From Lachnospiraceae bacterium (lineage in GTDB: Bacteria > Bacillota > Clostridia > Lachnospirales > Lachnospiraceae), in contig JAFYWF010000116.1 in the NCBI GenBank assembly GCA_017558145.1, positions 4,415 through 68,414 of the forward strand: DNA of 64,000 nucleotides, given 5' to 3'. The position numbers were made by a program, and so were the translations under genes. Numbering within the stretch: the first letter of the stretch is position 1; the number at the start of each line of letters is the position of its first letter. The notes under the pieces were generated by a model. That model had not been told where the DNA came from. It made no database searches and saw only the letters and a list, made by a program, of their open reading frames with translations. Of the stretch, positions 46,629 to 53,495 are shown in pieces.

Positions 46629-47660
46629 ATGGCAAAAGTGAGTGTGATTATTCCCTGCTTCAATGCACAGTTTTATATAGACAGATGCCTTACCTCAGTT
46701 ACTTCCCAATCCATCGGAATAGATTCCTTAGAAATCATATGTGTTGATGATGCTTCTACGGATAATACCTGGGAAAAACTGCAGCAATGGGAACAGCGAT
46801 ATCCCAATCAGATTATGATTCTTCATTTTGATACCAATTCCAGACAAGGAACTGCCCGTAATGTAGCATTACAATATGCCACTTCTCCTTGGATAAGCTT
46901 CGTGGATTCCGATGACTGGATTGAGCCTGATTATTACCAAAAGCTACTATATTGTGGAGAACAGACAGCTTCTGATATCGTAATCTGTAAGACTATACGG
47001 GATTCTTCTTTAGAATTATCATTTTTAGATAATACTAAAACAGGTGAACCGAATCGTTTTATGGTGATAGACTCTTTGGAAAAACGCAAACTATTCTTAG
47101 TGCTTCGCAGCATGGATTCTCTTGCTTGTGCAAAGATTGTTCGTAAAGATTTTCTGTTAGAAAATCAGATTTTTTTTCCGGAATACCTTACCTACGAAGA
47201 TACCTATTGGGGCTCTTTGCTTCATCTGTATACAAACAGGGTGTATTTTTTAGAAGAAACTCTTTATCATTATTATATTAATGAACATTCTTCTGTTTTA
47301 CAGTCTAACTCGGAACATCATTTGGATCTTCTTACGGTACAGATGCGGTTATGGAACGAATGGGAAGAACGAGGCTTTCTAGAAAATTTCAGAGAAGAAT
47401 TAGAATATGATTTTCTTCATTCCTGTTATCTTCGCTTTTTGAAGGTTCTGGTTTACCGCTACCAAACACCCCCTTTATCACTGTTTCTTTTATTACAGCA
47501 ATTGATTCAGAAACGAATTCCGGATTTTTTAAATAACTCTTATTTACAACAAATAGAGCAACCGGATTTTTATAAAATATTATTTCAAGCAATAACATTA
47601 CCCATGAATAAGGAATCGTTTATGGAATTTACTACATCTATCCAAAGAATTGGAATGTAG
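46629..47660 (+). CDS. GT2 glycosyltransferase (paralog of 51317..52360)
   Basis: VSVIIPCFNAQFYIDRCLTSVTSQSIGIDSLEIICVDDASTDNT...SFVDSDDW. Confidence 0.85.
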   Translation: MAKVSVIIPCFNAQFYIDRCLTSVTSQSIGIDSLEIICVDDASTDNTWEKLQQWEQRYPNQIMILHFDTNSRQGTARNVALQYATSPWISFVDSDDWIEPDYYQKLLYCGEQTASDIVICKTIRDSSLELSFLDNTKTGEPNRFMVIDSLEKRKLFLVLRSMDSLACAKIVRKDFLLENQIFFPEYLTYEDTYWGSLLHLYTNRVYFLEETLYHYYINEHSSVLQSNSEHHLDLLTVQMRLWNEWEERGFLENFREELEYDFLHSCYLRFLKVLVYRYQTPPLSLFLLLQQLIQKRIPDFLNNSYLQQIEQPDFYKILFQAITLPMNKESFMEFTTSIQRIGM

Positions 47661-47661
47661 T

Positions 47662-47806
47662 TGTAACAGTTCAACCATGACCAATCACTACGCTGATTGG
47701 TCATGAGAGAAAGTGTAAATATAAAGAAAGCAGCACCCAGCTCGCTGAAAGCGACTTTAAATCTGGGTGCTGCCCGTAACAGGAAGCCGGAGGCTGAACT
47801 GTTACA
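47662..47806 (+). other. GC-rich ~145-nt structured insert: three perfect 11-12-bp helices in a three-way-junction layout (MITE-like element or unknown cis-RNA)
   Basis: P1 is tgtaacagttca (47662-47673) / tgaactgttaca (47795-47806). P2 is catgaccaatca (47676-47687) / tgattggtcatg (47694-47705). P3 is gcagcacccag (47730-47740) / ctgggtgctgc (47763-47773), with an inner tcgc-tgaaa-gcga. TGTAG lies on both flanks (47656-47660, 47807-47811). Confidence 0.6.
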
Positions 47807-47831
47807 TGTAGGTATTACAAGGAGGTAAATT

Positions 47832-48812
47832 ATGTTACAATTCGAACCATCTTATTTTAACGCAGAAGACCGCGATGGTTTCCACATCAAATCTATGGTA
47901 AAACGCTGCTGGGCTGTTCAGCTTAAGGTTCTATCAGAAATTGATGCTATCTGCAAACGCCACAATATTATGTATTATGCTGAATGTGGAACTCTTTTAG
48001 GCGCTGTCAGACATGGTGGCTTTATTCCTTGGGATGACGATTTAGATATTGGTATGCGACGCGTGGATTATACCCGCTTTCTTCATTATGCAAAAACAGA
48101 ACTTCCGGAAGGATATTCTATTATTAATGTAAAGGGAAATGGTATCCAATTAATTTGTAGAGTTGTAAATACCCTTTTTATTACCATGAATCCTAAACAA
48201 CTAGAAGAATTCTATGGTTTTCCCTATATTGGCGGTATTGATATTTTTATAACCGATAATATTCCTAAAAACAAAAATGAAGAAAATGTTCAACTGGAAT
48301 TATTGGCCGCCGTTAACAGCTTAGCCATTAATTGGGATAAAAAATTTTCTAATACACAATCTGATAATCTGGATGTAGAATCTGTAGAAAATGCTTCTAT
48401 GGAAGAAAAAATGGAATTAGTCAAACAAATTGAAGAATTATGTAATATAAAATTGGATCCAAACAAATCCATGAAACGTCAGCTACTTATTCTATCAGAT
48501 CAGATTTGTGCCATGTATTGGGATGACGAACCAAACGAAGTTTCCTTAATGCCTGATTTGGTGCTTAAAAGAGAGTTTCGTTTTCCGGTAAGCTATTATG
48601 CCTCTACCATAGATATGCCGTTTGAAAATACTACCATTCCTGTACCGAAAGAATATGATAAAATTTTACGAAAACGATATGGTGACAACTATATGACTCC
48701 AATCCAATGTACAAGTTCTCACAATTATCCTTTTTACTGTCATCAGGAAAAACGTTTATTCGCTGAATTTGAAAAACAGAATCTACCAATTCCTGCTTAT
48801 TTGAAAGAATAG
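47832..48812 (+). CDS. LicD-family phosphotransferase, copy 2
   Basis: AECGTLLGAVRHGGFIPWDDDLDIGMRRVDYTRF. Confidence 0.85.
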   Translation: MLQFEPSYFNAEDRDGFHIKSMVKRCWAVQLKVLSEIDAICKRHNIMYYAECGTLLGAVRHGGFIPWDDDLDIGMRRVDYTRFLHYAKTELPEGYSIINVKGNGIQLICRVVNTLFITMNPKQLEEFYGFPYIGGIDIFITDNIPKNKNEENVQLELLAAVNSLAINWDKKFSNTQSDNLDVESVENASMEEKMELVKQIEELCNIKLDPNKSMKRQLLILSDQICAMYWDDEPNEVSLMPDLVLKREFRFPVSYYASTIDMPFENTTIPVPKEYDKILRKRYGDNYMTPIQCTSSHNYPFYCHQEKRLFAEFEKQNLPIPAYLKE

Positions 48813-52634: not shown

Positions 52635-53495
52635 TTAGCCAAGTAATGCCAATACACCCTGATTAGACTGGTTAGCCTGAGCCAACATAGACTGTCCTGC
52701 CTGAGCAAGAATGTTGTTGTTAGAGAATCTAACCATTTCAGCTGCCATATCTGTATCACGAATCTGGCTTTCTGCTGCTGTTGTATTTTCTACAACGTTG
52801 TCTAAGTTTCTAATTGTGTGTTCAAGACGATTCTGGATAGCACCGAGTTCAGAACGCTGTGTAGAAACTGTTTCAAGCGCTTGCTTAACATAATTGTTAA
52901 GGCTGGAGAATTTACTTGTTGTAAATACTGTTGTAGAAGCTGTAATGCTTGCCTGTGTATAGAATGTAGAAATAGAAGAATAGTAAGATGTAGATAAACT
53001 ACTACAACTCATAGAATCAATAGTAATCTTAATATACTGTCCTGTTTCTGCACCAACCTGAAGACCGATATTAGTGAATTTACCATCTAATAAGCTCTTT
53101 TCGTTGAAAGTTGTTGTAGATTTAACTCTGTCGATTTCGCTCATTAACTGCTGAACTTCCATAGCGATGTAGTTACGGTCTGCTGTTGCAAGAGTTCCGT
53201 TTTCACCTTTAACTGCTAATTCGTTCATACGCTGTAACATATCATGTACTTCAGTTAAAGCACCTTCTGCTGTCTGTACACAAGAGATACCGTCAGATGC
53301 GTTTGCAGAAGCCTGTGTAAGACCTCTAATCTGTCTTCTCATTTTTTCAGAAATAGCTAATCCAGCTGCGTCATCTGCTGCACGGTTAATTTTGTAACCG
53401 GAAGATAATTTTTCTGTGGATTTTGCCTGTGCACCTGTTGTGATGTTAAGCATTCTCTGAGAATTCATTGCTGTAAGATTGTGTTGTACTACCAT
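52635..53495 (-). CDS. fliC: Flagellin (short, 286 aa; D0/D1 core with a minimal Ser/Thr/Tyr-rich central segment)
   Basis: N-terminus MVVQHNLTAMNSQRMLNITTGAQAKSTEKLSSGYKINRAADDAAGLAISEKMRRQIRGLTQA. C-terminus LGAIQNRLEHTIRNLDNVVENTTAAESQIRDTDMAAEMVRFSNNNILAQAGQSMLAQANQ. It has a strong SD (GGAGG). Confidence 0.95.
   Translation of the reverse strand: MVVQHNLTAMNSQRMLNITTGAQAKSTEKLSSGYKINRAADDAAGLAISEKMRRQIRGLTQASANASDGISCVQTAEGALTEVHDMLQRMNELAVKGENGTLATADRNYIAMEVQQLMSEIDRVKSTTTFNEKSLLDGKFTNIGLQVGAETGQYIKITIDSMSCSSLSTSYYSSISTFYTQASITASTTVFTTSKFSSLNNYVKQALETVSTQRSELGAIQNRLEHTIRNLDNVVENTTAAESQIRDTDMAAEMVRFSNNNILAQAGQSMLAQANQSNQGVLALLG

Follow-up and report, generated by a model that had tools for sequence, protein, structure and literature searches.

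The segment that separates a GT2 glycosyltransferase gene from a LicD-family gene in the window (the whole 64-kb stretch of DNA that was analyzed) is very probably a 143-bp non-autonomous DNA transposon (MITE) that has terminal repeats of the ISBst12 group (IS66 family) and carries no gene. Insertion of the segment at this site, duplication of its target, the existence of a wider family and a match of its ends to insertion sequences (ISs) of the ISBst12 type were demonstrated, and we infer that the element was mobilized in trans. The features by which MITEs are recognized were found together: a small and non-coding element, terminal inverted repeats, a duplication of fixed length, an empty site, and ends held in common with autonomous ISs. 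The initial annotation, made from the sequence of the window, had left two readings side by side, an unknown cis-RNA or a miniature inverted-repeat insertion; the latter was borne out by empty sites, by many copies at unrelated sites and by the target-site duplication. Its placement of the segment between GT2 and LicD genes also held, both open reading frames (ORFs) being confirmed by Pfam. The features of the locus, in window coordinates, are as follows.

46629-47660, + strand: GT2 glycosyltransferase gene (Pfam PF00535, E = 1.5e-31)
47655-47662, strand not applicable: left 8-bp copy of the target duplication, ATGTAGTT (octamer present once in empty sites)
47663-47805, + strand: MITE proper, 143 bp, class A, GTAAC...GTTAC (103 bits with covariance model R1; an insertion when compared with relatives)
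47663-47676, + strand: left terminal inverted repeat, GTAACAGTTCAACC (inverted-repeat search)
47676-47705, + strand: hairpin 1, perfect 12-bp stem (47676-47687 / 47694-47705) with a 6-nt loop (inverted repeat)
47706-47729, + strand: unpaired A-rich (purine-rich) spacer (unpaired in folds, variable in alignments)
47730-47773, + strand: hairpin 2, 11-bp outer stem (47730-47740 / 47763-47773; inverted repeat)
47776-47788, + strand: internal copy of the left end, GTAACAGGAAGCC, able to pair with the right end (paired in this way in the DNA fold)
47792-47805, + strand: right terminal inverted repeat, GGCTGAACTGTTAC (inverted-repeat search; terminus common to the family and the ISs)
47806-47813, strand not applicable: right 8-bp copy of the target duplication, ATGTAGGT (octamer present once in empty sites)
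47819-47834, + strand: LicD Shine-Dalgarno sequence AAGGAGG (47819-47825) and start codon ATG (47832-47834), unaltered by the insertion
47832-48812, + strand: LicD-family gene, intact, 3' of the insertion (Pfam PF04991, E = 1.3e-36)

Four syntenic relatives (L004, L005, L006 and L008) supplied the empty site. In these, the gene order GT8-GT2-LicD-cytidylyltransferase is kept, LicD is 72 to 76% identical, the octamer ATGTAGGT is present once, and the GT2 stop codon is separated from the LicD ATG by 20 nt, against 171 nt in the window. The aligned empty sites read ...ATTGG-T-ATGTAGGT-ATTACAAGGAGG..., and the window reads ...ATTGG-A-ATGTAGTT-[GTAAC...GTTAC]-ATGTAGGT-ATTACAAGGAGG..., with duplication copies that are identical at 7/8 positions and a mismatch that lies in the left copy. 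Both genes are intact, because the GT2 stop codon TAG (47658-47660) falls within the left copy of the octamer and the ribosome-binding site of LicD comes after the right one. The GT2 C terminus (...IGM*) is common to the window and the empty-site relatives, and the stretch that holds the LicD Shine-Dalgarno sequence and start, GTATTACAAGGAGGTA, is the same in the three nearest of them (L008 has it minus two bases). All nine contigs with an identical GT2 carry the insertion, its sequence identical wherever it was covered (two short-read assemblies break inside it). A LicD protein of identical sequence is encoded on seven metagenomic contigs, and those that cover the junction all have the 171-nt gap and an identical element. 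It is also worth noting that three short-read (Logan) contigs start or stop inside the element (L003:1 and the 3' ends of L177 and L178; window 47676-47745); palindromic repeats of this type break assemblies of the window's species.

A perfect 8-bp direct repeat flanks 75 of the 105 copies of class A, the class of the window's element, and a repeat matching at 7/8 positions flanks a further 11, among them the window's copy. The length of 8 bp was set by copies with flanks other than those that start in A and finish in T (GTAATAAG, CATTAACA, CTGCCAGA, CCAAGAAC and ACATTTTC, all 8/8). Duplicated octamers were 81% A+T, a value that derives partly from the sampling bias of the search pattern, which has T before and A after the ends. 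A 6-bp duplication with a preference for A-N6-T targets, based on a perfect 6-bp repeat at 88 of 122 elements and on A before and T after in 93 to 97%, was rejected because the pattern had forced the outer T and A; a parent of the IS481, IS3 or IS21 type with TGT...ACA ends fell with that reading. The initial annotation had likened the flanking TGTAG motifs to a target-site duplication; the duplication is real, but it is 8 bp and not 5 bp long. Similarly, the 12-bp closing helix described there is perfect, but its outermost T/A pair is part of the duplicated target, and the element proper is therefore 47663-47805.

The three perfect helices reported from the sequence were all recovered. The closing helix (47662-47673 / 47795-47806) pairs at 12/12 positions and extends to 15 nt (15 bp) if one mismatch is allowed; hairpin 1 pairs at 12/12 and the outer stem of hairpin 2 at 11/11, the latter enclosing an inner 5-bp stem, TCGCT/AGCGA (47742-47746 / 47750-47754), with a GAA loop and a T-rich asymmetric bulge on its 3' side. 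The terminal repeats GTAACAGTTCAACC and GGCTGAACTGTTAC are complementary at 13 of 14 positions. Also as first observed, the element is richer in GC than its surroundings (46.2%, against 33.3% for the window and 33 to 35% for the flanks). The minimum free energy of the + strand folded as RNA was -64.7 kcal/mol, compared with -35.6 ± 3.8 kcal/mol for 200 dinucleotide shuffles, none of which was as good (z = -7.7), and folding of the minus strand and with DNA parameters gave z-scores of -8.3 and -8.0, respectively. No credible ORF was found in the element; ORFs of just 28 to 43 aa overlap it, without support. The + strand of the element has neither a promoter-like site nor a hairpin followed by a U-tract, the mark of an intrinsic terminator, and because of this the GT2-LicD transcript should read through the insertion, carrying a very stable 143-nt fold. 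Such a fold could loosen translational coupling or provide a site for RNA processing or stabilization. Read on the minus strand (47731-47747), hairpin 2 is followed by TTTCTTTAT / TTTCTTTATATTT, a terminator-like arrangement that could halt antisense transcription into GT2.

To establish the distribution of the family, representative genomes were scanned with a pattern made of the two ends only (TGTAACAGTTC N{100,130} GAACTGTTACA). At least 119 loci were recovered, mostly from Lachnospiraceae, at unrelated sites, in both orientations and with several per genome. Sources were metagenome-assembled genomes (MAGs) and isolates of Lachnospiraceae from mouse, pig, chicken, rabbit, ruminant and human gut, with Muricomes intestini, Blautia hominis, Sporofaciens musculi, Otoolea muris and Eisenbergiella porci among the named carriers. 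A few matches fell outside Lachnospiraceae, in MAGs assigned to Armatimonadota, Planctomycetes, Zixiibacteriota, Omnitrophota, Nitrospinae and Saccharibacteria, and may reflect either true spread or binning error. Elements in MAGs of these phyla (L010, L026, L034, L095, L101 and L122) combine the same 12-nt ends with G/C-rich or simple-repeat interiors. Element length ranged from 127 to 152 nt among the matches listed. Interiors fell into at least three classes that share the ends alone, and class A made up 87 of the 122 pattern matches listed, by our own sorting.

A covariance model (R1) built from 28 class-A copies, with copies counted at ≥64 bits, identified 105 class-A copies in 94 sources, 19 of them without exact ends and up to four per 8-kb locus, in a family sample that is biased by the exact-end pattern. 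The window's element, at 103 bits, is the single copy in the 64 kb. Counting copies and looking for empty sites had been proposed as a check on the initial annotation, and it returned copies in other genomes at unrelated sites as well as the empty sites of the four relatives; at least seven to eight dispersed loci were found in each of CAMWUK01 and JAAVHR01. These two MAGs are dense in class A (L048 in JAAVHR01; L091, L064, L069, L038 and L058 in CAMWUK01), with up to four copies per 8 kb. Some copies in them have the variant ends GTAACTATTCAG and GTTACTGTTCAC, which suggests that several subfamilies may be active. Where flanking genes were co-directional, the element had their orientation in 17 cases and the opposite one in 10. 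An exact search with the 30-mer of hairpin 1 gave zero matches in the collection of representative genomes, and the window's species is therefore probably absent from that collection; a blastn search of plasmids and phages with the element as query gave nothing relevant. A literature search, with ISfinder outside its scope, turned up no account of MITEs that have ISBst12/IS66 ends, no earlier link between MITEs and the ISBst12 group of IS66, and no MITEs in Lachnospiraceae. The family is large in gut Lachnospiraceae and apparently undescribed, while its kind (MITE) is already known.

The closest sampled copy (L021, from a sheep-rectum Lachnospiraceae MAG) occupies a different site and differs from the window's copy at many positions; between the two there is one compensated pair in hairpin 1, three in hairpin 2, and no change that breaks a stem. 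The suggestion that the insertion is young was not established, given this divergence and the presence of the insertion in all nine contigs with an identical GT2. The family also includes mini-elements of 30 to 33 bp that consist of the left repeat, a loop of 4 to 6 nt and the right repeat alone (L080:2725-2755, L083:844-875, L039:2944-2976 and L092:4540-4569). Two of these (L080:2725-2755 and L083:844-875, 31 to 32 bp) are flanked by perfect 8-bp duplications, TTTTGGCG and GATTATAG. Such mini-elements may be the smallest mobile units of the family, and the ends alone would seem to be sufficient for mobility. Since copies that have only ends also carry duplications, the hairpins are probably not needed for it.

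Ends that start with GTAA and a direct repeat of 8 to 9 bp are a hallmark of the IS66 family, and the element has GTAA-starting ends and an 8-bp repeat, as in its ISBst12 group. ISDge4 of Deinococcus geothermalis, a single-ORF member of this group, encodes a transposase of 449 aa, is bounded by the ends GTGACTACTCAGCA and GTAACTGCTCAGCA and has an 8-bp repeat; the transposition mechanism of the group is poorly known (PMC12898284). An IS66-like IS of the Geobacillus plasmid pHTA426 is listed as ISBst12-group (PMC8024623); its ends were found to be GTAACTATTCAGCCCG and GTATCTATTCAGCCCA and its repeat AACTCGTC. Relatives on plasmids of Bacillus thuringiensis, Geobacillus stearothermophilus and Acaryochloris have 8-bp repeats and ends of the type GT(A/T)ACT(A/G)(C/T)(C/T)CAG, and relatives on viral contigs have 8-bp repeats and GTAACT[AG]TTCAG ends. 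The homologue P0208 ("IS66 family transposase [Lachnospiraceae bacterium]", 491 aa), with index entries in 184 blocks of the assembly collection, is encoded by an IS of 1826 bp that terminates on either side in GTAACTGTTCAGAACC and is flanked by the repeat AAAAAGAT. The P0208-type end variant was found exactly, at one end, in four class-A copies. In the sampled contigs of this IS (L145-L152), an unusually long leader of 330 nt runs from the left repeat to the transposase start, and several contigs place the IS beside a HEPN/nucleotidyltransferase pair.

A scan of metagenomes for GTAACAGTTCAG followed 172 to 202 nt later by the reverse complement of a conserved DNNQAE motif identified 21 loci at which a gene for an ISBst12-type transposase ends in exactly GTAACAGTTCAG. 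These loci include complete low-GC ISs of 1.49 to 1.50 kb: that of L161 begins and ends with GTAACAGTTCAGCCGT and is flanked by the repeat GATTTCAT, that of L172 encodes an ORF of 477 aa, and that of L169 has an ORF of 476 aa and the end GTAACAGTTCAGCCAT. The stop codon of the transposase lies inside the right repeat in L172, L161 and L169 (...AAT GGC TGA ACTGTTAC) and in L142 (GAA TAG TTAC), an arrangement that probably helps to explain the conservation of the terminus from Deinococcus to Clostridia. Taken across the group (ISBst12, ISDge4, the IS66-like ISs of the Geobacillus plasmids pHTA426 and pGS18, and the P0208 IS), the element and the ISs share the terminus GTAAC(A/T)(G/A)TTCAG and the 8-bp duplication. 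Agreement at the terminus is 12/12 to 16/16 for the metagenomic ISs, 11/12 for the P0208 IS (which differs at position 6) and 12/14 for the pHTA426 IS. In contrast to these ISs, the element is 143 bp rather than 1.5 to 1.8 kb long, lacks a transposase gene, has an extra internal copy of its end, and has an interior unrelated to the sampled IS ends.

These differences bear on how the element stands to its presumed parents. With the Geobacillus transposase as query, tblastn detected no ISBst12-type transposase in the element, in the 64-kb window or at the at least 119 MITE loci. The element, which has no DDE_Tnp_IS66 transposase ORF, is thus not itself an IS and can only be a derivative of one or a hitch-hiker. 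No IS-sized elements with the same ends and no recurrent transposase-like ORFs were present among those loci, and a scan of viral contigs with the final IS-end pattern found nothing. The MITE interior showed no similarity to the sampled IS ends, apart from a terminal stretch of about 30 nt in another class; the element is therefore not a simple deletion derivative of those ISs. MITEs in general depend on a transposase supplied in trans (PMC3189936). In the most likely sequence of events, a DDE transposase of the ISBst12 type, made elsewhere in the cell, would have bound both GTAACAGTTCAG ends, and the element would have inserted through cuts staggered by 8 bp within the octamer ATGTAGGT, which overlaps the GT2 stop codon. 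Repair of the cuts would then have duplicated the octamer. The only change to the junction is the lengthening of the gap from 20 to 171 nt, which now holds a very stable fold of three hairpins.

The point of interest in this family is that a hairpin architecture has been conserved though the ends alone appear to suffice. Class-A copies keep one order of parts. The left repeat is followed by hairpin 1, a purine-rich spacer and hairpin 2; next come an internal copy of the left end (GTAACAG being near-invariant at this position across the class), a short loop and, last, the right repeat. Within hairpin 2, the outer stem encloses an inner one of 4 to 6 bp, which is usually closed by a loop of 3 nt, and a bulge on the 3' side conforms to TTTnnAAT. 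Stem sequences diverge strongly between subfamilies and the pairing is kept. In an alignment of 100 distinct copies, which was fitted to the model and hence leans towards it, 97.2% of pairing cells were paired, compared with 81.5% in column shuffles and 24 to 36% with slid partners. The same model-fitted alignment had changes on both sides in 25 of 32 pairs, and covariation was seen in all modeled pairs of hairpin 1 (7/7) and of the outer (7/7) and inner (4/4) stems of hairpin 2. An independent alignment of 28 copies (MAFFT/RNAalifold) supported compensatory changes in 18 of 32 pairs. The rule advanced at the outset, that covariation would favor an RNA over a MITE, proved non-discriminating, the family being multi-copy with empty sites and strongly covarying at once.

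The hairpins may be retained through selection on the element, through host selection in favor of inserts that do no harm or are useful, or through templated correction of one arm by the other. Templated correction between the arms of a palindrome is a mutational process known for quasi-palindromes, and can keep palindromes perfect without selection. It is conceivable, if unlikely, that the class-A interior is a selected structured module (RNA or single-stranded DNA) riding on a minimal vehicle of the ISBst12 type, and used by hosts or by the element to insulate, process or stabilize flanking cistrons or to tune transposition. Were this so, the family would represent a mobile structured nucleic-acid element and not inert filler.

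How far the insertion affects its present neighbors is a related question, and one answer would add to the transposon explanation without excluding it: the segment would be a MITE by origin whose hairpins now act on the GT2-LicD transcript, where they might block 3'-5' exonucleases, offer a processing site for RNase III or RNase Y, act as a partial terminator or break translational coupling. The element does sit between two same-strand genes that are 20 nt apart in relatives, its RNA fold is very stable compared with shuffles, and Correia, REP and ERIC elements have transcript effects of this sort. The family-wide retention of hairpins with covariation points the same way, as do the duplications around mini-copies, given which the hairpins may be dispensable for mobility, and the identity of the insertion, wherever covered, in all nine contigs with the same GT2. 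However, the + strand has no U-tract after its hairpins and no promoter-like site, the orientation of copies relative to flanking genes is unbiased, which speaks against any general strand-specific role as RNA, and arm correction could maintain the palindromes by itself. On balance, co-option at this junction is a minority possibility.

Readings that deny the transposon origin fare much worse. A dedicated cis-regulatory RNA controlling LicD (a riboswitch, an attenuator or a protein-binding leader) would fit a position just 5' of the LicD ribosome-binding site, a fold of several helices and a covarying structure, but it is already contradicted and extremely improbable: the same junction is without the element in four relatives that keep the operon, the same element stands beside unrelated genes in both orientations, and a target duplication and transposon ends are present. 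Moreover, unpaired regions are variable, with no conserved core resembling a ligand pocket, and a search against Rfam 15 gave no match for the whole window at the gathering score and only noise for the local region at E ≤ 10. That search agrees with the initial annotation in finding no known riboswitch; the alternative offered there of an unknown cis-RNA, taken as a gene-specific regulator, was not supported by these observations. A RAYT-mobilized REP/REPIN sequence, or an IS200/IS605-type palindrome-associated element, would likewise be rich in hairpins, intergenic and multi-copy. To our knowledge, neither kind has target-site duplications or terminal inverted repeats, whereas the present family has a perfect 8-bp duplication in most class-A copies and ends that match DDE-type ISs of the ISBst12 group, leaving this origin with scarcely any probability. 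Integron attC sites, retron ncRNAs, IS110 bridge RNAs and CRISPR repeats were also considered, and do not fit a fixed 8-bp duplication combined with IS-type ends.

With the segment taken as a MITE, its nearest counterparts are Correia (Neisseria), RUP (Streptococcus pneumoniae), MITEPsy1 (Pseudomonas syringae), ERIC and bcr1, all of which are small and non-coding, with terminal repeats and a duplication of fixed length. Classical bacterial MITEs are intergenic, multi-copy, co-transcribed with their neighbors and form stable hairpins. The family described here resembles them in these properties; it differs in having a parent in IS66/ISBst12, a duplication of 8 bp against their 2 to 5 bp, and an interior of three hairpins that is conserved in shape and not in sequence. 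REP/BIME sequences and REPINs are intergenic GC-rich palindromes in operons that are moved by RAYTs and can stabilize upstream mRNA. They have the intergenic, GC-rich palindromes within operons in common with the present element, which alone has the duplication and the IS-type terminal repeats.

For annotation, the result means that a tempting candidate for an orphan riboswitch is mobile DNA, and with the 12-nt ends or model R1, false leads of this sort can be flagged by the hundred in genomes of gut Clostridia and assembly breaks explained. Natural substrates of 31 to 143 bp with defined ends could also be simple tools for the study of ISBst12-type transposases. For the host, the insertion could, if polar, change the relative amounts of the enzymes decorating a surface antigen, as it lies in a flagellin-glycosylation operon.

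The neighborhood of GT2 and LicD is a cluster of glycosyltransferase, cytidylyltransferase and flagellin genes. Within the LicD start region, 8 nt (ATGTTACAA, 47833-47840) are complementary to the left end of the element (TTGTAACA, 47661-47668). This complementarity looks like coincidence, since the LicD sequence is unchanged in the three closest empty-site relatives; in the carrier, the LicD start region could compete with the closing helix. The cluster itself forms part of a large flagellin-glycosylation island (window 36741-58216) with GT8, several GT2, a GT2-TPR gene, LicD, and a cytidylyltransferase-oxidoreductase fusion adjoining a flagellin gene (52635-53495). On a matching contig the island additionally contains Glyphos_transf, IspD-like, Fe-ADH, FGGY kinase and GDPD genes.
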